The notes: generated by a model from the letters alone, not told the origin. A stretch of 38,873 nucleotides of DNA from a virus (IMGVR_UViG_2734482567_000007), one strand, 5' to 3'; numbered from the stretch's first letter, positions 1,277 to 38,460 are shown. A program made the numbers and translations.

Positions 1277-3364
1277 ATGTTTGCTTCAGTTAAAGAACTG
1301 GTTGGATTACCGGGGATGCCGGGAACGGAGCAAGGCGTTCGCTATTCAATCAGGAAGTATGCAACCAGCGAAACCAGCAGACGCCGCAAGAAAGGCGCTA
1401 AAGGTTTTGAATACAGCATTGACTGTTTACCTGAAGTGACACAGCAGGCATTACGCGAACGTTATGCCCTGCAACTGATGACGCAAAAAGCCGATGAATC
1501 ACCGGCTCCGGTGGTGACAAAGGCCAGACGCTCGTCTGCCGTGGTTGATGCGGTGGAGGCATATCGCGGATCACCACAACTGATGGTCGAACGCCTCAAT
1601 GCCCTGACTGAAAACCAGCGCCAGGTGGCAGACGCACGCATTGCGATCGTCAGTGAGGTGCTGAAATTCACGCAACAACCCGGTTTCAGCTGCGCTAAAG
1701 CTATCCGGTTCCTCGTTAACAGCCTGGCACGATCACAACTGGACGAGCGCATTGTGGCAATGGTTGAGACGGCGAACGCCAAAAAGGGAAACAGCCGCGC
1801 GTTGAGTGAAATCACGCTGAAACGCTGGATTGCGGCCTTTAACAAGGCACAGAACGCCGCTGAACGCCTGCTTTTACTGGCACCGGGTAAACGCCAGGAA
1901 ATAAAAGCCGAAGATATTAACTGGCTGCCCGAATTTCTGGCGCAGTATCGCCAGTCAAACGGCCGACCAATGACCGAGGCTTACGAGGATTTTGTTGCTG
2001 AATGGCAGCACCGGCACGCTGATGAGCCTTATATGCTCGATATCATGCCCTCTTATGACACCATTCGCCGCGCAATGAAGAAACTGCCGGAAGTGGTGAA
2101 ACAAAAAGGCCGGGTAACTGGCAGTGAATACCGTCAGCTTGAGGGATTCACGCGCCGCGACTGGTCCAGAATGCCGGTGAATTATGTCTGGATTGGTGAC
2201 GGTCACGGCATGAAGCTGAAATGCGCGCACCCGGTTCACGGGCGGCCATTCGCACCGGAAGTGACCTTTGTTATCGACGGTGGCACGCGCTTTGTGGTGG
2301 GCTGGAGCCTTGACCTGGCTGAAAATGTTTTCGCCGTAGCCGGTGCCATACAGCACGGTATTCGCCATCATGGCAAACCGTTTCTGTATTACTCGGATAA
2401 TGGCTCCGGGGAAACCGCCGACGTCCTGGATAAGGAGATTGTGGGGATACTGCCACGACTGGGGATTAATCACCCGACAGGGATTGCCGGTAATCCGCAG
2501 GGACGGGGCATTATCGAACGGCTTAACCGCACATTACCGATGCGCATAGCCCGTAAATACCGCACCTATTTCGGGAAAGGAGCAGATCGCGAGACGTTAC
2601 GTAAAACCAACCGCGATTTACGCTCGGCATTCAGTGCCCTGCAACAGGGCAAACGGCTGAACGCCCGGCAGCAGTCAGCGATGCGTGATTTACCGTCCTG
2701 GTCTGAACTGATTGATGCCATTCGTGACGGTGTTGAGTGGTACAACAACCGGCCGCACGATGAATTACCCATGAAGCCGAACGGTAAACATTACAGCCCG
2801 GCGGAGTTCAGAAAAAAACGCCTGGCGGAAGAGGACACGGAAATTGAATGGCTGTCCGATGTTGAACTGCGGGATATGTTCCGGCCGATGGTGGAGCGCC
2901 CTGTAAGACGCTGTGAAATACGCTGGCTGAATAATATTTACTACGCGCCCGAGCTGCGTGACGAGCATGGCCGTAAGGTACTTATCAGCTATGACATTCA
3001 TGATGCCGAACGAATTACCGTGCGCCGCCCGGATGGCAGCGTGATTTGCGAGGCGGTATGGGACGGCAATAAACGCGAAGCCTTCCCTGTCAGCGCGGAA
3101 TACTACAAACAGCAGCAGCGCCTTAAAGGCATGCGTAAACGCGCAGAGGAAAAAATCCGTGATGCCGAGGATGAGGTTGTCAACGTGCTGGAGCACAAGC
3201 CGCAGGAGCCCTGGCTGGAAAACATATACCGCCCTGTGGGTAATACGGTGACCGTTCAGCAACCGGTCGCTGACGATGAACCTGATGAAGAATACGAGCG
3301 TAATTTCCAGCGGGGATTGCAACTGCTCGAAGCGAAATTAAAAGAAAGTGATCCGCTGGCCTGA
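1277..3364 (+). CDS. A: Mu-type DDE transposase (MuA homologue)
   Basis: 695 aa; position after ner; WIGDGHGMK and downstream acidic residues consistent with DDE core; size close to MuA. Confidence 0.85.
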   Translation: MFASVKELVGLPGMPGTEQGVRYSIRKYATSETSRRRKKGAKGFEYSIDCLPEVTQQALRERYALQLMTQKADESPAPVVTKARRSSAVVDAVEAYRGSPQLMVERLNALTENQRQVADARIAIVSEVLKFTQQPGFSCAKAIRFLVNSLARSQLDERIVAMVETANAKKGNSRALSEITLKRWIAAFNKAQNAAERLLLLAPGKRQEIKAEDINWLPEFLAQYRQSNGRPMTEAYEDFVAEWQHRHADEPYMLDIMPSYDTIRRAMKKLPEVVKQKGRVTGSEYRQLEGFTRRDWSRMPVNYVWIGDGHGMKLKCAHPVHGRPFAPEVTFVIDGGTRFVVGWSLDLAENVFAVAGAIQHGIRHHGKPFLYYSDNGSGETADVLDKEIVGILPRLGINHPTGIAGNPQGRGIIERLNRTLPMRIARKYRTYFGKGADRETLRKTNRDLRSAFSALQQGKRLNARQQSAMRDLPSWSELIDAIRDGVEWYNNRPHDELPMKPNGKHYSPAEFRKKRLAEEDTEIEWLSDVELRDMFRPMVERPVRRCEIRWLNNIYYAPELRDEHGRKVLISYDIHDAERITVRRPDGSVICEAVWDGNKREAFPVSAEYYKQQQRLKGMRKRAEEKIRDAEDEVVNVLEHKPQEPWLENIYRPVGNTVTVQQPVADDEPDEEYERNFQRGLQLLEAKLKESDPLA

Positions 3365-3437: not shown

Positions 3438-4379
3438 GTGAATAATATGACCGATATTAACGATGTAATCAAGACCATTGATGAACTTATTGATGGCGGC
3501 GTACTGACGCAGTATGCCATCGCCAGAGAGGCGGGAATTTCCGACGGCACATTATCGGCTTTCCGTAAGGGAAAATATAAAGGCGATAACGCTGCTGTGG
3601 CTGCTTCCCTGCGCTCCTGGTATGAGAACTGGAATAAACAAAGCGCACTGCCGGAACCGCCGCAGTTTGTGGAAACTCAGACAGTCCAGGAGCTGCGCGC
3701 ACTGTTTCAGGCGGTTCGCCTGATGGGCTGTATTAACGTTATTGTGGGCGTACCGGGTGTGGGTAAAACGGCCACTGCCCGTAATTACTGCCAGGAGCAA
3801 CCAAACACCTGGATGATCACCCTGTCACCCGCGCACTCCAGCGTCACGGAGTGTCTGCTGGAGCTGGCCGATGCGCTGGGGATTGATTACACCCGCGCGA
3901 ACAAAGGGGCATTATCCCGCGCCATCCGCCGTCGCCTGATGGGAACGCGTGGACTGGTGATTGTGGATGAGGCGGATCATCTTGGTATTGACGGTCTGGA
4001 GCAACTCCGGGCAATTCAGGACGCCACGGGGATCGGGATGGTGCTTATTGGTAACCCGCGCGGATTGTTTAAAGGTGGACGCCGCGCCTTTGATGATTTA
4101 TCGCGCCTGTTCAGCCGTCTTGCCCGTACAAAACAACTTCGCAAGGCCAAAAAGGCGGATGTGCTGGCCATTGCCATGGCGTGGGGGATCAGTGGTGAGG
4201 CCGAGCTGGCCGTCATGCAGGCTATCGCTGAAAAGCCGGGAGCGTTACGCGTTCTGACACATACGCTTAACCAGGCGTGGCTCACCGCCAGCGGTGAAGG
4301 CGCGGCGCTGACAGAAAAACATATTAATGCGGCCTTTAAAGAGGTTTATACCAACCCTGAATTACTCTCACAGGTGTGA
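3438..4379 (+). CDS. B: Transposition ATPase (MuB homologue, AAA+)
   Basis: 313 aa; Walker A GVPGVGKT, Walker B VIVDEAD; directly downstream of A. Confidence 0.85.
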   Translation: MNNMTDINDVIKTIDELIDGGVLTQYAIAREAGISDGTLSAFRKGKYKGDNAAVAASLRSWYENWNKQSALPEPPQFVETQTVQELRALFQAVRLMGCINVIVGVPGVGKTATARNYCQEQPNTWMITLSPAHSSVTECLLELADALGIDYTRANKGALSRAIRRRLMGTRGLVIVDEADHLGIDGLEQLRAIQDATGIGMVLIGNPRGLFKGGRRAFDDLSRLFSRLARTKQLRKAKKADVLAIAMAWGISGEAELAVMQAIAEKPGALRVLTHTLNQAWLTASGEGAALTEKHINAAFKEVYTNPELLSQV

Positions 4380-8477: not shown

Positions 8478-8765
8478 ATGGAAAAAGAAATCAAATTTGC
8501 GCCTAAATCTATCGACGAAGAACTGGCTAAAATCGGCATGCTTGAACGTATGCGGGACATTATCGAATATGCGATAAAAGAAAATCTTGCAGCCAGAGAA
8601 GCCCTTTTGATAATGGAGCGGGAGATTAACCTGATTAAGGATGCTGTATCTCTGGATAATAAAATAGCCCGCGAGGAATACGTTCGCCGTAGGCTCGGTG
8701 TTGATGGTTCAGCAATTCTTACATCTGAACATTATGCAAAAATTTTTAATCTTTTTCAGCGGTAA
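8478..8765 (+). CDS. Hypothetical protein (AT-rich)
   Basis: ATG at 8478 with GAGGA 8 nt upstream; 95 aa; AT-rich codon usage unlike phage core. Confidence 0.4.
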   Translation: MEKEIKFAPKSIDEELAKIGMLERMRDIIEYAIKENLAAREALLIMEREINLIKDAVSLDNKIAREEYVRRRLGVDGSAILTSEHYAKIFNLFQR

Positions 8766-8985
8766 TCCCCATACAGGCCCGGAGATTGTCGAAATGCCAG
8801 TCGGTATTAATATATGAGCCATCCTGGATATCTTCTGCATTTTCCGGGGTAGAGTTTTTTTGAGCGAGATTGATAATATGTATTGCCTCCTCACGGGAAA
8901 TCAGCCCCTTATCGAACAGGGTTACCATAAGATTTCCAGCCATTGTGAATGCGGCAACATCAAGTGCATTTTTTATATCTGACAT
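8746..8985 (-). CDS. Hypothetical protein encoded antisense to the early operon
   Basis: 79 aa; strong RBS AAAAGGAAAAATCT before ATG; convergent with and overlapping 3' end of previous gene; AT-rich. Confidence 0.45.
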   Translation of the reverse strand: MSDIKNALDVAAFTMAGNLMVTLFDKGLISREEAIHIINLAQKNSTPENAEDIQDGSYINTDWHFDNLRACMGITAEKD

Positions 8986-9013
8986 AGATTTTTCCTTTTA
9001 TGTTAATTGACAT

Positions 9014-12113: not shown

Positions 12114-12695
12114 ATGGATAAGCCAGCGCGTGGCCGTGTACGCAAGGTGGATTTGCTCCCCGACAGCATCCGTAAGCCGCTGCTGGAAATGCTGCGTGAA
12201 AAACGTCTGACGCAGGTCCAGATCCGCGAGGAAATCAACCGTCTGATCCGTGAAGCAGGTCTGCCGGAAGAGCAGCAGCTCTCACCGGCGGCCATCAGCC
12301 GGGAAGCCTCCCGTAATGAGCTGATTGCCCGTAATCTGCGTGATTTACGCGAGCAGACAAAAGCCATGATGGCCGAACTGGGGGATAAGCCGACCGGTGA
12401 AACCACGGCACTGATTCTGGAGATGTCCCGTGCCCTGATGTACCGCCGTCTGCGTGCCGCCACCGAATCCCTGAACAGCGACAGCGATGTGGATATGCGC
12501 CTTATTAAGGACATCCTCCTGTCGGCACAGCGTGCAGAAAGTGCCGCCGAGCGCAGCATTAAGCGTGAAAAAGAAATCCGGGCCGCATTTGCTGAAGAGA
12601 TGGCGAATGCGGTCACCGATGAGTTGCGCGGCGTGGATGGCATGAGCGAGCAGATCGAATTCCGTATCAGGCAGATGCTGCTGGGTAAGGCGTAG
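12114..12695 (+). CDS. Putative terminase small subunit (Mu gp27-like)
   Basis: 193 aa, immediately upstream of large terminase; basic N-terminus with HTH-like character. Confidence 0.55.
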   Translation: MDKPARGRVRKVDLLPDSIRKPLLEMLREKRLTQVQIREEINRLIREAGLPEEQQLSPAAISREASRNELIARNLRDLREQTKAMMAELGDKPTGETTALILEMSRALMYRRLRAATESLNSDSDVDMRLIKDILLSAQRAESAAERSIKREKEIRAAFAEEMANAVTDELRGVDGMSEQIEFRIRQMLLGKA

Positions 12696-12705
12696 GAGGT
12701 GAATC

Positions 12706-12954
12706 ATGGCAACAGATAACCGCTCACTGATGAGCAGTGCCCATCAGAAAGCATTCAGTCTTGCAACACAGTTACCTCCTGAAACCATAAAGGTATGTCG
12801 TGAGTTGACTGAACTCAGCATTGCCGGGGAAATATCCCTGGAACAACTGCATTCGCTGCTGGCAGAGGCTGCCACTGATGAGTTGAGCGGCGTGGACGTG
12901 ATGACTGAAGAGCTTGAGTCCCGAATCAAAAGCATTCTGACAGGTAAAGCATGA
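12706..12954 (+). CDS. Small protein whose C-terminus duplicates the terminase small-subunit C-terminus
   Basis: 82 aa; ...TDELSGVDVMTEELESRIKSILTGKA versus ...TDELRGVDGMSEQIEFRIRQMLLGKA of preceding gene, with matching nucleotide similarity. Confidence 0.45.
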   Translation: MATDNRSLMSSAHQKAFSLATQLPPETIKVCRELTELSIAGEISLEQLHSLLAEAATDELSGVDVMTEELESRIKSILTGKA

Positions 12955-14618
12955 TGAACAAAGCCAGAGAAACGTCGCCTTCACTGATGCAAATGACGCC
13001 TCCCCGCAAAATTGATCTGTCAGGTGAAAAAGCCCTGCTGGGCGTGGATGTGCCGGACAGCCTTGATTTGCCCGGTGATATGCCGGTGTTTCTGGATTAT
13101 CAGGCCCGCTGGTTTGCAGATGAAAGTCAGGTCTGCATCGCGGAGAAATCCCGCCGCACCGGTCTTACCTGGGCGGAAGCCGGGCGTAACGTCATTACTG
13201 CTGCAAAACCGAAGCGTCGTGGTGGCCGCAATGTGTTTTATGTGGGATCAAAGCAGGAGATGGCGCTGGAATATATTTCTGCCTGCGCGCTGTTCTCCCG
13301 TGCCTTTAACCAGCTGGCAGATGCTGATGTGTATGAGCAGACATTCTGGGATCGGGATAAAAAAGAAGAAATTTTGACCTACATGATCCGCTTTCCGAAC
13401 AGTGGATTCAAAATTCAGGCATTGTCTTCCCGTCCGTCAAACCTGCGCGGCCTTCAGGGGGATGTGGTGATTGATGAAGCCGCGTTCCACGAGTCACTGG
13501 ATGAGCTTCTCAAGGCGGCAATGGCGCTCACTATGTGGGGCGCGCGCGTGCGTATTATCTCCACGCATAACGGCGTCGATAATCTGTTTAATCAGTACAT
13601 TCAGGAAGCCCGCGAGGGGCGCAAGGATTACAGCGTCCACCGCATAACCCTGGATGATGCCATTGCGGACGGGCTGTACCGTCGTATCTGTTACGTCACC
13701 GATCAGGAATGGTCACCGGAAAGCGAGCAGAAATGGCGTGATGATCTCTACAAAAACGCCCCGACCCGTGAGGATGCCGACGAGGAATACGGCTGTATCC
13801 CGAAAAAATCCGGCGGTGCCTATATCCCCCACGCGCTTATTGAAATGGCGATGATCCGCGACATCCCGATTCTGACGTTTGAAGCCCCGGACAACTTCAT
13901 CAGCCGTGCCGCATGGCTGCGTGAATCGGAAGTTTTAACCTGGTGTGAAGAACATTTAAAACCGCTTTTAGAGAAATTAAATCCCCGTTCCCGCTTCAGC
14001 TTCGGGGAAGACTTTGCCCGCACCGGTGACCTGTCCTGCTTTGTGCTGCTGGAAATCACCGAATCCCTGGCAAAGCGCGAGGTGTTTCGCGTGGAGCTGC
14101 GCAACCTGCCGTATGCCCAGCAGGAACAGGTGATGATGTACATCCTGACCCGCGTTCCGGCGCTGGTCGGTGCGGCGTTCGACGCCACCGGTAACGGCGG
14201 CTATCTGGCAGAGGCCGCACTGCTGGCCTTTGGCCCGGACATCATCGACTGCGTGATGTTGTCGCCGAAGTGGTACGGCGAGTGGATGCCAAAACTGAAA
14301 GCCGAGTTTGAAGATCAGAATATCCTCGTCGCCCGCCATCAGACCACGCTTGATGATTTGCGCCATGTGAAGGTAGTGAATGGTATCCCGCAAATCGACA
14401 AGGGGCGCACGAAGGACCAGAACGCAACGGCTGCGAACGCCCGCCGCCATGGTGATTTTGCCGTGGCGCTCTGTATGGCAAACCGGGCGTCATACATGGA
14501 GGGCTTCATCCTGGATGAATCAGCCTGTCAGGCGCTACAGGAGCGGTCGCGGGCAATGGAGGGCGGTTATCGTGATGACGATGAGGCATATCATGAATTT
14601 GATCGGGGGGGCTGGTAG
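12951..14618 (+). CDS. Terminase large subunit (Mu gp28-like)
   Basis: 555 aa; position; VVIDEAAF Walker-B-like motif and C-terminal nuclease-like region. Confidence 0.75.
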   Translation: MMNKARETSPSLMQMTPPRKIDLSGEKALLGVDVPDSLDLPGDMPVFLDYQARWFADESQVCIAEKSRRTGLTWAEAGRNVITAAKPKRRGGRNVFYVGSKQEMALEYISACALFSRAFNQLADADVYEQTFWDRDKKEEILTYMIRFPNSGFKIQALSSRPSNLRGLQGDVVIDEAAFHESLDELLKAAMALTMWGARVRIISTHNGVDNLFNQYIQEAREGRKDYSVHRITLDDAIADGLYRRICYVTDQEWSPESEQKWRDDLYKNAPTREDADEEYGCIPKKSGGAYIPHALIEMAMIRDIPILTFEAPDNFISRAAWLRESEVLTWCEEHLKPLLEKLNPRSRFSFGEDFARTGDLSCFVLLEITESLAKREVFRVELRNLPYAQQEQVMMYILTRVPALVGAAFDATGNGGYLAEAALLAFGPDIIDCVMLSPKWYGEWMPKLKAEFEDQNILVARHQTTLDDLRHVKVVNGIPQIDKGRTKDQNATAANARRHGDFAVALCMANRASYMEGFILDESACQALQERSRAMEGGYRDDDEAYHEFDRGGW

Positions 14619-16207: not shown

Positions 16208-17522
16208 TTTAGGTTATGCCGCCACGCTTCCCTCAAAAGAGACGGTGGCATACTTCCGCGCCAAAGGGGCGCATATCAGCTGGAACTGGTTCGAAACAGA
16301 CGCGGATGTTCATGCCCGCTCATTCACGGCAGCAAAAACGGCACGGCTGGATGTGGTAACCACATTACAGGCCGAAGTGCAGCGGGCCATTGATGAGGGG
16401 ATTTCACAGAAAGAATTTATCCGCACACTGACGCCACGCCTGCAAAAGCTGGGATGGTGGGGAAAGCAGATTGTGGTGGACAGCGACGGTAACGCGGAAG
16501 AAGTGCAGCAGGGCAGTCCCCGTCGTCTGGCGCTGATTTACAACGTGAACACCCGTGTGGCTTACAATGCCGGGCGTTACACGCAGATGATGAACAACAC
16601 GGACACGCATCCGTTCTGGCAGTATGTGGCGGTCATGGACAGCCGTACCCGCCCGTCGCATTCCGCCCTTAACGGTCTGGTATTCCGCTATGACGATCCG
16701 TTCTGGAAAACACACTACCCGCCCAATGGCTGGAACTGCCGCTGCCGTGTGCGGCCATTGTCTCAGGCCCGTCTGGATGCAATGGGGTTATCCGTTTCAT
16801 CCGGTGAGGATCATCTCTCCACCCGCAATGTTGAGGCTGGCGTGGATAAACAGACCGGAGAAGTCAGAGAAATGCCGGTGACCACATATTCAGATGGCGC
16901 CAGAACCATGACACCGGATGTGGGCTGGTCATATAACCCCGGCTCGGCAGCGTTCGGCACAGACCAGGCGCTGATCCGCAAACTGATCGAGGTGAAAAGC
17001 CCGGCGTTACGGGAAATGGTGGTTCAGGAGATGAACAACAGCCCGGAGCGGCAGCTGGCGTTCCGCATCTGGGCAAAAAACATCATGCAGACCCGGCGAG
17101 GTGGTAACGATATCCGCACGCTGGGCTTTATGACTGAAAGCATTGCGCAGGCAGTGGAAAGCCGGACGGGAACGCCACCGGCCCGCCTGCTGGCGATGAG
17201 CGGTAAAAATGTGCTCCATGCGGACAGTGTGAAACATCAGAATGACGGCATCGCTCTGACGCCGGAGGACTTCGGGCGCTTACCGGCAATGCTGGCAAGG
17301 CCAAAAGCGGTACTGTGGGACAAACGGCACAACAATCTGATGTATATCGTGGAAAATCAGGATGGCAGTGTGCAGATTGCCGTTAATGCACCGTACAGTC
17401 TGAAACGTCAGCCCGACAAACTGGATGTGATTGTGAATGCTTACCGGGTTATCAATATGGATAAGCTGAAATCGGATATCCGGGGCGGAATGCTTGAGGT
17501 GCTGGAAGGACAAATTGATTAA
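16191..17522 (+). CDS. Head morphogenesis protein (Mu F-like)
   Basis: 443 aa; motif DSRTRPSHSALNGLVF...NGWNCRCRV typical of F-family minor head proteins. Confidence 0.75.
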   Translation: MAQGIDLGYAATLPSKETVAYFRAKGAHISWNWFETDADVHARSFTAAKTARLDVVTTLQAEVQRAIDEGISQKEFIRTLTPRLQKLGWWGKQIVVDSDGNAEEVQQGSPRRLALIYNVNTRVAYNAGRYTQMMNNTDTHPFWQYVAVMDSRTRPSHSALNGLVFRYDDPFWKTHYPPNGWNCRCRVRPLSQARLDAMGLSVSSGEDHLSTRNVEAGVDKQTGEVREMPVTTYSDGARTMTPDVGWSYNPGSAAFGTDQALIRKLIEVKSPALREMVVQEMNNSPERQLAFRIWAKNIMQTRRGGNDIRTLGFMTESIAQAVESRTGTPPARLLAMSGKNVLHADSVKHQNDGIALTPEDFGRLPAMLARPKAVLWDKRHNNLMYIVENQDGSVQIAVNAPYSLKRQPDKLDVIVNAYRVINMDKLKSDIRGGMLEVLEGQID

Positions 17523-17607
17523 CGGTCAGTGGCGGGGGTCGAACCCGCATACATGATCCACCCGGAGGCAGGCACCGACTTTACCAGTTAAGCGTACACT
17601 GACCGCC
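17523..17607 (-). other. Structured tRNA-like element (T-arm plus acceptor-like stem), not a canonical tRNA
   Basis: Minus strand shows GTCAGTG...CACTGAC 7-8 bp terminal helix enclosing GCGGG-TTCGACC-CCCGC T-arm-like hairpin; no acceptable anticodon arm found. Confidence 0.3.
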
Positions 17608-32538: not shown

Positions 32539-33276
32539 TCATTCACTCTCTTTCAAACCAGTTTTAACTGTTTGTGGTTTTGGGTAAGGCTGGACTTTGA
32601 ATAGCTTTGTGTTAAGGCGTTTTCTGGCTCTCTTGTCCAGAAACCGGATGTAACGAAACTGACGGAATTTATGAACACTGGCTCTGTCGATATTAGCCCG
32701 CAGATGTTCACCTCGCTGTCCTCCTCGTTTGATTGCATTCTTGCAAATCTCGTGATACCACTCGCCATCAAGTTCATAGAATGTTGTTTCATGACTGCCT
32801 ACATAATCAAAATTGCTTGCCTGGTACACGACACCAAGACAGCCACAACGCTCATCTGCAAACGACTGAACCCACTGCACCTGCGGATAAAGTTGTCTGA
32901 TTAGTTTGAGCGCGTAACTGATTGCCCTTGATTCGGAGTTTCTCGGCATACAGTCATGCAGCCATAACCGGTTAAGCTCCATATATTCGCGGTTCTGCGT
33001 GCCAGTTACGACGCGTGCACCATTGTTTGGATTAAGGGCATAACCCCATTGCATTACGCCAACCAGCTCCCGTTCTGAAAATATGCCCAGATGAAGGTAG
33101 GAATTATTTACGAAACGATGGCTGTAATGTTTATTGACGACGACCAGCCGGGCCAGCCAGCAACTTATTGTCTCAACCCGTAACTCACGGGAGCCATAAC
33201 CGACGATATTGTCGTTATAGTGAATAAGTTCAGGCGTGCTGATGATACGGGATGTAACTTGCTTTCTGTTCCCCAC
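32539..33276 (-). CDS. mom: Mom-like DNA modification protein; start inferred as GTG at 33276 inside 3' end of com
   Basis: Last gene before the phage end, immediately downstream of and overlapping a Com-like zinc-finger gene; mom frame has no ATG near com stop; GTG at 33276 preceded by AAGGA (9-nt spacing). Confidence 0.55.
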
Positions 33277-33430
33277 GACAGGATTTCCTTGTGTATGTGG
33301 GGTGCTCTGTGGCGCTCTGAGATGTGATTTGATTGAGGGTTTTACAGCGCGGACATTTAACTTCCAGATAACTGAAGCTGGCTCGTGCCAGTAGCTTGTT
33401 ACAATGTCGGCACCGTATGTTTCGATACAT
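33230..33430 (-). CDS. com: Com-like zinc-finger translational activator of mom
   Basis: 66 aa from ATG 33430 (GGAGG upstream); CRHCNKLL...CPRCK zinc-finger resembling Mu Com; overlaps mom start. Confidence 0.7.
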
Positions 33431-33570
33431 GGCCGCATAACCTCCTGCTTTGTTGTTGATATCTTTATCACTCAATCGATCGACAAAAACGATCGATTTG
33501 ATTTATTTAATTGATACAACAAATAACACGAAATGTCATTAGCGAAAATTTATGAGTTTGATCACTAATT
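33431..33570 (-). promoter_or_regulatory. com-mom upstream regulatory region with clustered GATC sites
   Basis: GATC at 33478-33481 and 33491-33494, each within a CGATCG palindrome, and a third at 33560-33563, in an AT-rich region upstream of com. Confidence 0.45.
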
Positions 33571-34764: not shown

Positions 34765-36819
34765 TTACGCGTTATTCACTTCCACCACGATACTGTCAAT
34801 CAGTACCGGGTAAGTCGCATTTTTAGTGATATCGGTCACGCGCAACTTGTCTGCCGTAAACGTGCCGACCGGAGACTGCGACAGCATGAATGGTGTCCCG
34901 TCCTTACCATCAATGACCGGCGTCACCTCAATACTGTTGTTACCGGCAAAACGGAAGCCCAGCGTATGCCATTCGTTATTAAATGCGCCGAATGACCCCA
35001 GCTTCGTGTTCTGCGCCGTGTTTCCTTTGTGATACATCACGTTAAGGTCTGTGGCATCGCTCTGTACGTAGAACGATGCCAGCAGGTTATGACCGGCATT
35101 TCCTTCCAGAGTAACCCCTTGCGGCAGGGCAGAAACCGGCCAGTACAGCGCCAGTGCGTACTGATTAGCCGTAAGCGCGCCATCGAGTTTAAAACGACAA
35201 CTGACAAGACCACCTTTACCCAGCAGGTCCGCACCATTACCAGCATCATGCTCAAGGTACCAGGGGGCTCTTCCTGTTTCCTTGGTCAGTTTCATTGCCT
35301 TACCCCCGCTGGCTCCGGCATCATCCACGATTTGAGCCTTGCCACCTCCGGCAGCCCAACCCTGTGGTGTCAACCGTCCTTCAGACTCAGATGCCCGGTA
35401 AGCAAATAGCGTACTCATCGTCGTGGTGTCTGCGGGTGGCGTGGACGGTTTTGATGGTGTATCAGGTGACGGCTTCTCATCCGGTGGTGTCACGGTCTGC
35501 CCACGCATCAGTTCAGCCGTGCGCCCTGCATGGAGCATAATAGCTGAGGCCAGACGGTCTGAAATGACGCCCCTGCGTGCCCATGAGCTGAAATGGCTGT
35601 CACGCTGTGTCGAAACAAAACTGCCCTGGGTTCGGGATGCTGCACCGTAATACCCGACAGCCACAATATCCGGGTCTTCCGCCGGAGCATTCGTTGGCGT
35701 GCTCTGTCCATTCTCATCCGTCAGGAACGGTACAAAGAAAATTTTCTGTGCTTCCTTGCCTTTGTAGCCACCGTATACTGCCTCATATTTATCGGTGCCA
35801 GCGTTTTTCCAGTAATACGTGGTATCACCGCAAATCCACGGCACCGTGGTGGCATTTCCACTCACGCACTGCGCAGCAAGCGGAGCCAGGTCAGTTCTGA
35901 ACTGCTGAACCATGGCCGTGAATAAACTATTATGCTGCTGGCTTCCTGAGGCAAGGTCTGCCTCTCCCTGCATCCAGACCACAGCCAGAAGTTTGTTTTT
36001 CGGGTTTTTCGCCAGCGCGACTTTGGTGCGGCTTACCAGGTCCTGATACAGAGGTTTACCGGCCCCCCAGCGTGAAGAATCAGCGGAAGCACCGCTGGCC
36101 TCACTGAATGAGCCGTCGGCTCCAGTGGTGAATGCTGACCCGCCACGACAACAGGGCACCAGAAGTATCCCGGCATTCTGTGGGATATAGGGAAGCAGTT
36201 TTTTGGCAATATGCAACCCCTGACCGACAGTCCCGTACTGGCCTTTTGCCAGATCAGCTTTCGGGTGGTTTATCCCGCTCATATCCTGAACATCATGCAG
36301 GCAGTGGTCTGCCGGAATGATGTCGTTGTATGTACACGACGTACCGTTGGGCGTTACCGTACTGCGGCGTGCCAGTTGCTTAATGCGTGGGTCCGGGCGG
36401 TCAAACGAATCCGGTAACGGCAGCCCCTCGCCGTAGGCCATGCCATTTGACTGACCCGCGAGAATGACAACAAAGTAATATTCCGGCTCTGAACTGCTGC
36501 CATTCGTGCTACCGGAAGGCCCGGCGTTATCCGGTGCATTCCAGTCGGAGGGCGTGAGCGTTCCGGCCACGTCAGATGTGATTGGAATGATGCCAGTCAC
36601 GCCTGAACTGGTGATTTCTGCACTGGGATTACCGGATACCGGCATTACCCATAATGGCTCTTTCGTGCTGAAGCGGATCACGCAGTCTGCGAAGGTGATC
36701 CCCCCTTTATTACCCGAAGGGCGGAAAGGGCTTTCAATAAATGCCACCGTGCCACCGGCAACCTTGACTGAAAACTCTCCGGGCATGGCGGAGAGCATTT
36801 TCCACTTGGAGTCTGACAT
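34765..36819 (-). CDS. SGNH/sialate-O-acetylesterase-like carbohydrate esterase with C-terminal lectin-like domain (NanS-p-like)
   Basis: 684 aa; YYFVVILAGQSNGMAYGEG esterase motif; Pro/Ser/Thr-rich linker; C-terminal beta-rich domain; inserted between gin and com. Confidence 0.5.
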   Translation of the reverse strand: MSDSKWKMLSAMPGEFSVKVAGGTVAFIESPFRPSGNKGGITFADCVIRFSTKEPLWVMPVSGNPSAEITSSGVTGIIPITSDVAGTLTPSDWNAPDNAGPSGSTNGSSSEPEYYFVVILAGQSNGMAYGEGLPLPDSFDRPDPRIKQLARRSTVTPNGTSCTYNDIIPADHCLHDVQDMSGINHPKADLAKGQYGTVGQGLHIAKKLLPYIPQNAGILLVPCCRGGSAFTTGADGSFSEASGASADSSRWGAGKPLYQDLVSRTKVALAKNPKNKLLAVVWMQGEADLASGSQQHNSLFTAMVQQFRTDLAPLAAQCVSGNATTVPWICGDTTYYWKNAGTDKYEAVYGGYKGKEAQKIFFVPFLTDENGQSTPTNAPAEDPDIVAVGYYGAASRTQGSFVSTQRDSHFSSWARRGVISDRLASAIMLHAGRTAELMRGQTVTPPDEKPSPDTPSKPSTPPADTTTMSTLFAYRASESEGRLTPQGWAAGGGKAQIVDDAGASGGKAMKLTKETGRAPWYLEHDAGNGADLLGKGGLVSCRFKLDGALTANQYALALYWPVSALPQGVTLEGNAGHNLLASFYVQSDATDLNVMYHKGNTAQNTKLGSFGAFNNEWHTLGFRFAGNNSIEVTPVIDGKDGTPFMLSQSPVGTFTADKLRVTDITKNATYPVLIDSIVVEVNNA

Positions 36820-36904
36820 CGTCTTTTCTGCCTGTTTCTGAATTAAACAGAGTCAGAATAGCGACCGCTGAAAAATATGTGTTTTGCGGAAATTCAAAAA
36901 AGCG

Positions 36905-37477
36905 TCACGGTACTTTTGGTGACGGAGCTGGTGAGGCAGGAAAATAACGATAAAGGGTGGAAAGGCCAATATCAAATATCAGTGCGATTTGTTTACGGGA
37001 CTCGCCATTAGCCAGCAAACGGGCGATTTGCTCCCGCTCTTTCTCTGTCAGTTTCTGAGGTCTGCCGCCATGACGCCCCTGAGCACGGGCAGCAGCAAGA
37101 CCCGCGCGTGTACGTTCAATAATGAGTTCCCGCTCCATTTCCGCCAGCGCGCCCATTATATGGAAAAAGAAACGTCCCATGGGAGTGGATGTATCAATAT
37201 TGTCCGTAATGCTGCGGAAGTTAACGCCGCGTTGCCGGAGTTCTTCTGTTAAAAGGACAAGGTGCTGCATACTGCGTCCAAGGCGATCCAGTTTCCAGAC
37301 CAGCAGGGTATCCCCTGGCCGGAGTCGCTTTAATGCGCGTTTAAGTCCGGGACGCTCCCTTGTCTTACCGCTTATTCTGTCTTCGAAAAACAGCTCACAT
37401 CCTGCACATTCCAGCGCATTTCTTTGTAGCGCCGTATTCTGGTCATTTGTTGACACCCTGATATACCCAATCAGCAT
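36905..37477 (-). CDS. gin: Gin/Hin/Pin/Cin-family serine DNA invertase
   Basis: 190 aa; near-identical N-terminus to Mu Gin (MLIGYIRVSTNDQNT...GDTLLVWKLDRLGRSM...GRFFFHIMGALAEMERELIIERT); adjacent to gix site. Confidence 0.9.
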   Translation of the reverse strand: MLIGYIRVSTNDQNTALQRNALECAGCELFFEDRISGKTRERPGLKRALKRLRPGDTLLVWKLDRLGRSMQHLVLLTEELRQRGVNFRSITDNIDTSTPMGRFFFHIMGALAEMERELIIERTRAGLAAARAQGRHGGRPQKLTEKEREQIARLLANGESRKQIALIFDIGLSTLYRYFPASPAPSPKVP

Positions 37478-37523
37478 ACGATTTCCTTATTATAAAAAGC
37501 CGGAATTGTCGCATGAGGAATAA

Positions 37524-37907
37524 AACAGAGTTAATCCTGGCTTTCCTGAAAACCTCGGTTTACGGGAAACGGTAAACAGGGCGGCGAATGCCCTGCCATC
37601 GGACGGCACCGCCGTTGCCGCGAACAGGCTGGCAAATGCCCACACAATTAATGGTGTTCCCTTTGACGGGACGCAGGATATCACTATCTCATCAGGAACA
37701 GTAACCGCCATAAGACTGGGGTCGGTGACCGCACATATGCCCGGAACATGGGAAAGCTGGGATCTGAATCTGGGGGGCGGCAATGTTCTTACCGGAATTA
37801 AAGTACAGGATGTCGGTAAGAATACGGCAGATAACGTCGGCGGCGTGTATTACCGGCCGTTGCAGTATCTGTTAAATGGAGCATGGGTGACGGCTGCAAG
37901 TATATAA
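37524..37907 (+). CDS. Alternative tail-fibre C-terminal cassette (no start codon; expressed only after inversion)
   Basis: Open frame from IR into variable region ending at 37907; shares ...NGVPFDGTQDI with the minus-strand cassette and then diverges. Confidence 0.55.
   Translation, partial: NRVNPGFPENLGLRETVNRAANALPSDGTAVAANRLANAHTINGVPFDGTQDITISSGTVTAIRLGSVTAHMPGTWESWDLNLGGGNVLTGIKVQDVGKNTADNVGGVYYRPLQYLLNGAWVTAASI
37543..37568. other. gix-type inversion crossover site (left)
   Basis: TTCCTGAAAACCTCGGTTTACGGGAA, matching the Mu gix/hix core AAAACCTCGGTTTAC with imperfect dyad symmetry; 65 bp from gin start. Confidence 0.7.
37555..37624 (+). repeat. Left inverted repeat of invertible segment
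   Basis: 70 bp with one mismatch to the reverse complement of 38804-38873; encodes the shared fibre segment ...RAANALPSDGTAVAAN... Confidence 0.8.
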
Positions 37908-37938
37908 TGATATTCAGAAGGCCTTCCGGCCTTCTTTA

Positions 37939-38460
37939 TTACTGTGGCTGCTCAGGCCATTTAATGGCGTTAAATTCAGCTTCTGTTTTAATGGCGGGTA
38001 GTTCCATTTTCTTCACCTGACTGATGTATGCCATCCATTGGGTAAGTGCTGCTCTGTCTTCATCGCTGATGGTGCCCAGTTGTAGCTCCGTTCTCCAGTC
38101 ATTAATTTTTTCATATGCCTGATTAAGATATGACTGGCGCATTGCTTCCAGTTTTCTTGCGTAGTTAACCGGAATACGGGAGATTATGCCATTATCAAAC
38201 TTCCAGTTTCCTGAAATATCCGTGCCTTCAGGGAGTTCATCGACCTCAACCACAGAAAACCCCGCAGGATACAGCGCCGAGGCGTCCTGTGATATTGAGC
38301 AGATAACGCCGCTGTCAGGTGTTATGCAAAGTTTATATTTTTTGGTGAATAATGGCAGGGATTCGTAGAAATCCTTACCATCTTCACTCTGGAAATACTG
38401 AACATTATTACCATATGGCATATTTTCAGGATAATAACGGGTTATATTTTTTAGTTCCAT
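37939..38460 (-). CDS. Tail-fibre assembly (chaperone) protein, U/Tfa family
   Basis: 173 aa; GGAGG RBS; immediately downstream of minus-strand fibre cassette; typical Tfa C-terminal region. Confidence 0.75.
   Translation of the reverse strand: MELKNITRYYPENMPYGNNVQYFQSEDGKDFYESLPLFTKKYKLCITPDSGVICSISQDASALYPAGFSVVEVDELPEGTDISGNWKFDNGIISRIPVNYARKLEAMRQSYLNQAYEKINDWRTELQLGTISDEDRAALTQWMAYISQVKKMELPAIKTEAEFNAIKWPEQPQ

Follow-up and report, generated by a model that had tools for sequence, protein, structure and literature searches.

The stretch of viral DNA analysed here (IMGVR_UViG_2734482567_000007; 38,873 nucleotides, hereafter the window) is a complete Mu-like prophage. It encodes the MuA transposase (1277-3364), MuB (3438-4379) and MuF, and the RefSeq annotation of a 99.9% identical Escherichia coli chromosome supplies genes for Mor, lysozyme, spanin, a TraR-like protein, a DUF2730 protein and a gp26-like protein. 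Between the genes for the small and large terminase subunits (TerS and TerL) lies an open reading frame of 82 residues, ORF82, as a sequence-only reading of the window had proposed; both neighbours are identified by family matches. The features of the locus are the following:

12114-12695, plus strand: TerS, small terminase subunit, 193 aa, of the Mu gp27 / DUF3486 family (PF11985, phrog_426)
12600-12692, plus strand: C-terminal tail of TerS, aa 163-193, repeat copy 1, which aligns with ORF82 residues 52-82
12695-12705, plus strand: ribosome-binding site region of ORF82, with GGAGG at 12695-12699
12706-12954, plus strand: ORF82, 82 aa, ATG start, between TerS and TerL
12706-12870, plus strand: N-domain of ORF82, aa 1-55, homologous to the tail-less proteins ORF67 and ORF65
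12871-12954, plus strand: tail of ORF82, aa 56-82 and stop, repeat copy 2, a putatively grafted TerS 3' end
12954-14618, plus strand: TerL, large terminase subunit (phrog_2)
12954-13012, plus strand: variable 5' end of TerL, the first ~20 codons, which travel with ORF82 as a block

TerS matches PF11985 in Pfam over residues 12-193 (E=3e-33) and phrog_426, 'terminase small subunit', in PHROGs (E=2e-54), and is 56.5% identical to Mu gp27. The TerL gene product matches phrog_2 (E=5e-43), and a Mu-type portal gene lies downstream of it.

ORF82 is annotated as a gene by RefSeq. A GGAGG Shine-Dalgarno (SD) sequence precedes its ATG by 6 nt, has its first base(s) within the TerS stop codon and is unpaired in the predicted mRNA fold. 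The TGA stop overlaps the TerL ATG as TGATG, an overlap common to all alleles and also found at the TerS-TerL junction of prophages that carry no gene between the two subunits (ORF-less prophages). RefSeq starts TerL at the position equivalent to 12954; an additional in-frame TerL ATG at 12951 is exclusive to the window allele. No promoter or convincing terminator was found near ORF82, which places the gene inside the late packaging operon. There is also no unusual RNA fold nearby, and Rfam and tRNA scans of the window are empty.

Other parts of the window carry features of their own. A DUF2513 gene (8581-8991, minus strand; 2782-3192 in locus L002) lies on the opposite strand within the rightward early/middle region and is probably an accessory gene that was inserted there. 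RefSeq annotates, in the genome that is 99.9% identical, a 'tRNA-OTHER' between MuF and a virion morphogenesis gene (about 17516-17603 on the minus strand of the window; 11717-11804 in L002); ARAGORN and Rfam find no RNA gene across the whole window, this site included. A Mom-family protein of 309 residues is encoded at 32539-33471 on the minus strand, opposite to the late genes. Its Mom domain occupies residues 95-297, leaving an N-terminal extension of about 95 residues. The minus-strand genes at 34765-38460, past the Mu-like genes, encode a SASA/DUF6645 esterase, a serine invertase (Resolvase+HTH_7) and a tail-fibre assembly protein, and look like part of a second prophage adjoining the Mu-like one. 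In the phage collection, the sole close matches are Stx-phage records with an 'inserted Mu-like phage'.

The terminase tail of ORF82

The C-terminus of ORF82 had been described as clearly paralogous to that of the preceding TerS at both the nucleotide and the protein level. The similarity is real, the motif given for it (TDEL[RS]GVD.M[ST]E..E.RI...L.GKA) is correct, and it is limited to the last ~27-31 residues. BLASTP aligns TerS 163-193 with ORF82 52-82 gaplessly, with 18/31 positions identical and 24/31 positive (E=3e-10). Profile-profile comparison with hhalign pairs columns 50-82 of ORF82 with TerS 161-193 at 96% probability and returns no other segment. In DNA, the two tail copies are direct repeats on the same strand, 259 nt apart and 67% identical across 93 nt, with detectable similarity beginning at 12859 (ORF82 aa 52). 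A pairwise alignment, the check suggested by the sequence-only reading, puts the tail well above chance: the best local alignment (Smith-Waterman) spans ~70 nt with a score of 43, against 17.3 +/- 2.3 and a maximum of 29 in 200 shuffles, a scale obtained by aligning the TerS upstream region with the shuffled ORF82 upstream region. The tail repeat does not appear in the output of a repeat search of the window run with a seed of 9 and a minimum length of 20.

Upstream of the tail, the N-terminal 165 nt of ORF82 score 17 against the TerS gene, which equals the shuffle mean and is no similarity above chance; hhalign of the ORF82 and TerS families likewise finds nothing beyond the tail. A longer duplication, or a frameshifted TerS copy upstream of the tail, is rejected on these two results. 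PF11985 gives no match to ORF82 at E<=5. ORF82 thus resembles the Mu gp27 / DUF3486 small subunits in its homologous last ~27-31 residues and in the same predicted layout of a loop and terminal helix, but the remaining ~160 residues, among them the helix-turn-helix-like region at the N-terminus and the long helices, are absent from it. Judged by its sequence, ORF82 is not a small terminase, as more than 80% of the PF11985 architecture is missing.

A consensus of ..DGMSE[EQ]LE[AS]RI[KR]..LLGKA emerges from 43 distinct TerS tail sequences. The ORF82 tail, EELESRIKSILTGKA, fits this consensus; the TerS tail of the window, QIEFRIRQMLLGKA (last 14 residues), is an outlier. At three positions that are invariant or near-invariant in TerS (R172, G176 and S178), ORF82 carries S, V and T (R172S, G176V, S178T), and it has T at TerS position 190, elsewhere L or M only (L190T). 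Hydrophobic positions of the TerS tail are kept at 7/8 sites, as read from the BLASTP alignment. The AF2 model of TerS ends in the close of a long helix, a loop (172-178) and a helix (179-191); its pLDDT is 52, and only the secondary-structure pattern is used. A tail of loop plus amphipathic helix is predicted by AF2 for ORF82 and TerS alike, with low confidence in the TerS model.

One tail position differs between ORF82 alleles. Codon 72 of ORF82 (12919-12921) encodes F (TTC) in the commonest allele, like F183 of the co-resident TerS (12660-12662), and S in the window allele, as in the ORF-less TerS type. The F may reflect gene conversion between the tail copies, or coincidence.

Tail-less relatives and the TerS-TerL joint

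The N-domain of ORF82 is acidic, with 7 K/R vs 13 D/E. AF2 predicts ORF82 helices at residues 3-22, 25-39 and 45-60 (pLDDT 70); a fold search of this model against the PDB gives nothing at E<=0.001, and the best matches, ribosomal helices, are uninformative. PADLOC has no match at E<=1 for ORF82 or for its relatives ORF67 and ORF65, and Pfam has nothing for these small ORFs.

ORF67 (P0012) occurs on six metagenomic contigs, after a near-identical TerS with the same ribosome-binding site; the GGAGG and its spacing are identical across all ORF82 and ORF67 loci. It matches the ORF82 profile over positions 1-56 (E=1.2e-10) and phrog_30922 (E=2.6e-14). The two proteins have residues 1-55 in common, after which ORF67 ends in ..LVAHAQSSRRGKT with no TerS-like sequence, followed by a spacer of ~120 bp and a TerL with a different N-terminus. 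Over codons 35-55, ORF67 and ORF82 are only ~55-60% identical and differ by a 12-nt indel.

ORF65 (P0133-P0148) occupies the same slot in a Citrobacter braakii genome, an IMG/VR prophage and four more contigs, one of them from a Salmonella enterica assembly, and its protein clusters are annotated as Salmonella enterica. In these loci GAGGTG stands right after the TerS stop, homologous to the SD of ORF82, and the ORF65 stop overlaps the TerL ATG. The protein ends in ..LEDKVKKV, again with no TerS-like sequence, and neither ORF65 nor ORF67 shows similarity to TerS. ORF65 is related to the N-domain of ORF82 by BLASTP (E=4e-7) and hhalign (74% probability, E=2.8e-5, columns 4-50 vs 6-52, colinear), so that this homology link appears moderate, not strong. 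Its length is 65 aa in 14/16 clusters, and its pN/pS of 0.30, vs 0.08 for the adjacent TerS and TerL, indicates moderate purifying selection.

ORF82 is like these two proteins in its TerS-TerL slot and strand, in an SD placed after the TerS stop and in the homology of a ~50-residue N-domain. It is unlike them in length (82 aa, as opposed to 65-67 aa) and in having the family-specific C-terminus replaced by a TerS tail. By these homologies, ORF82 is best classed as a divergent, tail-bearing member of the ORF65/67 family. ORF65 of locus L049 (3090-3284) also matches phrog_220, 'minor head protein and DNA pilot', weakly (917-974 of 1338, E=2.5e-5), which hints that an ORF65-type small domain may also exist within large virion or pilot proteins.

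ORF82 belongs to phrog_30922 (E=6.9e-52, residues 2-82 on positions 2-82 of the 82-position profile), whose members were found only in E. coli genomes, E. coli-named proteins and prophage or metagenome contigs. An index-based search of 5.8 billion proteins gives 11 clusters, and those with a named source are from E. coli; an exhaustive HMM search of 1.84 billion representatives returns ORF82 copies or fragments, one 67-residue relative and nothing else. Among 50,697 phage records, tblastn finds no full-length ORF82, only TerS tails and chance mycobacteriophage matches with E close to 1. Presence and absence were surveyed in E. coli complete genomes, IMG/VR and contig look-ups, because a profile scan of genome contigs with the TerS alignment gave two loci. 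The prophage type is present in 231 of 5426 complete E. coli genomes, and 25 of the 5426 carry ORF82, at 29 sites (up to 3 per genome), all between TerS and TerL; ~206/231 are without it. In this ORF-less E. coli allele there is a clean absence of 259 bp, and the end of TerS runs directly onto the start of TerL. The two subunit genes are also directly adjacent, with no gene in between, in Mu and in a Shewanella Mu-like phage, and in a group of 74% identity (Salmonella-like) TerS overlaps TerL directly and has a consensus tail.

The 5' end of TerL that adjoins ORF82 occurs in the E. coli set at the 29 places, in 25 genomes, where ORF82 does, and at no others. It is ~60-65% identical to that of the ORF-less allele, against flanks at 92-95%, and at least 5 versions of the TerL N-terminus exist among the relatives. 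At least 6 junction states were found:

no ORF
ORF82
ORF67 with a 120-bp spacer
a 9-codon remnant (L029)
ORF65
an 87-aa ORF (L048)

In enterobacterial Mu-like prophages, the joint between TerS and TerL is thus small and hypervariable, a hot spot.

Some single loci are worth recording. L029 (IMG/VR UViG_2654587996, 3082-3125) is a deletion derivative of the ORF67 allele in which the SD and the first four codons are kept; the resulting 9-codon mini-ORF, MATDWFSYE, has a stop that overlaps the TerL start and suggests selection for some translated leader before TerL. L048 (IMG/VR UViG_2663762818, 3090-3353) has an 87-residue ORF in the TerS-TerL slot that has no family match and resembles ORF65 in the first ~10-20 residues only (MQQKYDWYE..). 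A Logan contig (P0014) encodes a gp27-family protein of 291 aa, 96% identical across the whole of TerS, a length consistent with fusion to the gp26-like gene of 96 residues that lies upstream, through a frameshift or an assembly error.

Constraint on ORF82

The sequence-only reading would have yielded to an ORF absent or frameshifted in all relatives. The survey finds it neither absent nor frameshifted throughout: all 19 ORF82-bearing loci that were read, representing 6 alleles, have an open frame that begins with ATG or GTG, and the SD is conserved. Substitutions, counted as minimum events, are distributed as follows:

ORF82: 11 synonymous, 22 nonsynonymous
ORF82 tail: 4 synonymous, 5 nonsynonymous
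TerS among ORF82-bearing loci: 30 synonymous, 2 nonsynonymous
TerS tail: 4 synonymous, 0 nonsynonymous
TerL, counted over codons 26-200 only: 32 synonymous, 5 nonsynonymous

Pooled pN/pS is 0.42 for ORF82, 0.01 for TerS and 0.05 for TerL; with ~33 events in ORF82, its rate ratio is not cleanly separable from neutrality or from moderate constraint. TerS is under very strong purifying selection and ORF82 is weakly constrained. The tail of ORF82 is polymorphic (A56V, G62S, S72F, K75R, S76G and, in one allele, L70P) and that of TerS is not; allele P0006 has a proline in the terminal helix of ORF82. This weak constraint on ORF82 and its tail argues against an essential role like that of TerS. The ORF82 tail has a dN/dS of ~0.3 when compared with the closest TerS tail and of 0.30 within its family; together with the 7/8 hydrophobic positions kept, this makes some selection on the tail possible.

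Origin and possible role of ORF82

The tail of ORF82 is 77% identical in nucleotides to the TerS tail of ORF-less E. coli prophages (pS 0.42), vs 67% to the tail of its co-resident TerS (pS 0.66, near saturation). With its fit to the TerS consensus, this means that the tail is not a copy of the neighbouring TerS; of the paralogy to the preceding subunit that had been proposed, the homology of the tail holds and an origin by duplication of the neighbour does not. In the ORF-less allele, whose TerS tail is MANAVTDELRGVDGMSEQLESRIKGILLGKA, the 5' half of the tail is like that of the window TerS, and the 3' half, with the overlap of stop and start and the opening codons of TerL, is like the tail of ORF82 and its sequel. 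The ORF82 tail would accordingly appear to be the former 3' end of an ORF-less-type TerS gene, still joined to its TerL start.

The reading we prefer, at a probability of roughly 55%, is that ORF82 is a chimera in which an accessory N-domain was fused in frame to a TerS 3' end and its linked TerL 5' end, the tail being largely a passenger and the frame being kept for coupling to TerL. The sequence-only reading had offered a recombination scar, an alternative adaptor and a modulator of packaging, and the scar fits best of the three, with the refinement that the donor would be the TerS of another phage and the recipient a small gene that was already there. Two Mu-like phages would have recombined at the variable joint of their terminase genes. 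The left parent would have had a small gene of ~65-67 codons between TerS and TerL, with its own Shine-Dalgarno sequence right after the TerS stop, and the right parent the usual layout, with the stop of TerS overlapping the start of TerL. Joining in frame at about codon 55 of the small gene and about codon 167 of TerS would yield an acidic N-domain of three helices that runs into the final ~27 residues of a small terminase, and the ancestral overlap of TerS stop and TerL start would now be served by ORF82.

The chimera would be co-transcribed with the late packaging genes and translated from its own strong ribosome-binding site, and ribosomes completing it would reinitiate at the overlapping TerL start. 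TerL's own SD is weak and lies within GGTAAAGC of the conserved Gly-Lys-Ala codons. Such reinitiation is proposed as the reason why the ORF82 frame stays open despite amino-acid drift. The N-domain would carry whatever non-essential function belongs to the ORF65/ORF67 family, with the tail mainly a recombination passenger. The tail still shows the hydrophobic pattern seen in the terminal helix of TerS, so it might dock weakly on the partner of the TerS tail, though the reading does not require this. Expression of ORF82, its translational coupling to TerL and the lack of an essential function in its tail are what we infer from this arrangement. The parent genomes were not found, and no ORF-less phage in the E. 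coli set has the TerL 5' end that is linked to ORF82. The difference between ORF67 and ORF82 exceeds one crossover.

Other histories of the locus account for less. It is very improbable that ORF82 arose in place by tandem duplication of the 3' part of TerS, with an upstream portion diverged or frameshifted past recognition: direct repeats on one strand, and two proteins both predicted to be helical, would suit such an event, but the ORF82 tail is closer to another TerS allele than to its neighbour, no DNA or profile similarity exists upstream of the tail, and the N-domain has tail-less homologues of its own at the same locus in other genera. The order of events assumed in the chimera is itself inferential, and in principle a deletion between the tail repeats of an ORF82-like ancestor could have given rise to the ORF-less E. 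coli allele. ORF82 would then have come first in the lineage, and the repeat would be a recombination substrate, not a scar. The clean 259-bp deletion with its junction inside the repeat, the ORF-less TerS tail as a hybrid of 5'-TerS and 3'-ORF82-like sequence and the existence of a deletion derivative of the ORF67 allele (L029) all suit this order, which we nevertheless consider improbable. The hybrid tail is 83% (5' half) and 77% (3' half) identical to the copies by hand count, far under the 92-95% of the flanks, so any inter-repeat deletion would be old; a direct overlap is the state of the 74%-identity (Salmonella-like) group, TerS and TerL are adjacent in Mu and the Shewanella phage, and an earlier event creating ORF82 would still be required. 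That ORF82 is no gene at all, only a chance open frame in a recombination joint, is highly unlikely. Its substitution pattern does not differ significantly from neutral, and it has no Pfam or defence-system match and no informative fold match; against this stand an optimal SD and a start that are conserved, a frame open in all 19 ORF82-bearing loci read, across 6 alleles, its RefSeq annotation and phrog_30922 membership, and a homologous ORF65 of fixed length in 14/16 clusters with a pN/pS of 0.30.

The main alternative to the passenger tail, and a less likely one, is that the graft is functional. ORF82 would dock on the partner of the TerS tail, most likely TerL, and would either tune TerS:TerL assembly by acting as a decoy or serve as an adaptor, tethering its acidic N-domain to the packaging motor. 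In phage lambda (gpNu1) and P22 (gp3), the C-terminal segment of TerS binds the N-terminus of TerL (PMC9611059), and it is by this analogy that the gp27 tail is supposed to dock on TerL, the expectation of such a contact in the sequence-only reading included; the ORF82 tail travels with a matching variable TerL N-terminus. The tail is among the best-conserved parts of the gp27 family, is recognisable in the TerS of Mu and of a Vibrio phage and has zero nonsynonymous changes in TerS here. ORF82 retains its helix-loop-helix layout and most of its hydrophobic positions, and the tail dN/dS values of ~0.3 and 0.30 given above point the same way. The strong SD, the intactness of ORF82 in every locus read and the presence of the prophage in 2-3 copies in some genomes are further points for a function. 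However, ORF82 has replacements at the invariant or near-invariant R172, G176 and S178 of TerS, and nonsynonymous polymorphism is found in its tail and none in that of TerS. Purifying selection on the tail-less homologues (pN/pS 0.30) implies that the ORF65/ORF67/ORF82 family does not need the tail, and ~206/231 E. coli genomes with this prophage type do without ORF82. The docking partner of the gp27 tail is itself assumed by analogy, and a PDB search with the TerS profile gave no related structure.

Comparison with characterised systems bears on this alternative. Lambda gpNu1 and P22 gp3 are like ORF82 in that a short C-terminal small-terminase segment is encoded beside the large-subunit gene; there, the segment is within TerS itself, whereas in ORF82 it is on a separate protein, and no sequence or structural relationship to these two proteins was found. 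Rpp, of E. coli phage-inducible chromosomal islands, redirects packaging by binding TerS (PMC6739421). Compared by description, this small helical terminase-interfering protein is the nearest known concept to ORF82 as a decoy or adaptor; Rpp, though, is satellite-encoded, targets the TerS of the helper and is not terminase-derived, whereas ORF82 is a product of the phage itself, its gene lying between those of the phage's terminase. Literature searches on Mu gp27/gp28 and DUF3486 brought up no account of the tail, or of any gene lying between those for the two subunits. A 'tail graft' in the fullest sense, with an accessory domain that sits on TerL via a TerS docking peptide and either competes with TerS, thereby tuning or delaying the initiation of packaging, or brings an acidic N-domain to the motor, is by analogy conceivable but doubtful. 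If true, it would make ORF82 a phage-encoded modulator of the phage's own terminase, built from a terminase fragment, and would pinpoint the TerL-binding element of the Mu gp27 family.

Under the preferred reading of ORF82 as a recombinational chimera, the locus offers a clean, datable case of phage mosaicism building new ORFs. The event is ordinary phage mosaicism; its unusual part is an in-frame join within two unrelated coding sequences. Such an illegitimate join would be tolerated because the stop/start overlap feeding the essential TerL is preserved. The joint also hosts an undescribed family of 65-82-residue proteins. Should the tail prove functional, the tail-bearing, tail-less and ORF-less alleles on near-identical backbones would constitute a natural experiment for mapping the TerS-TerL contact.
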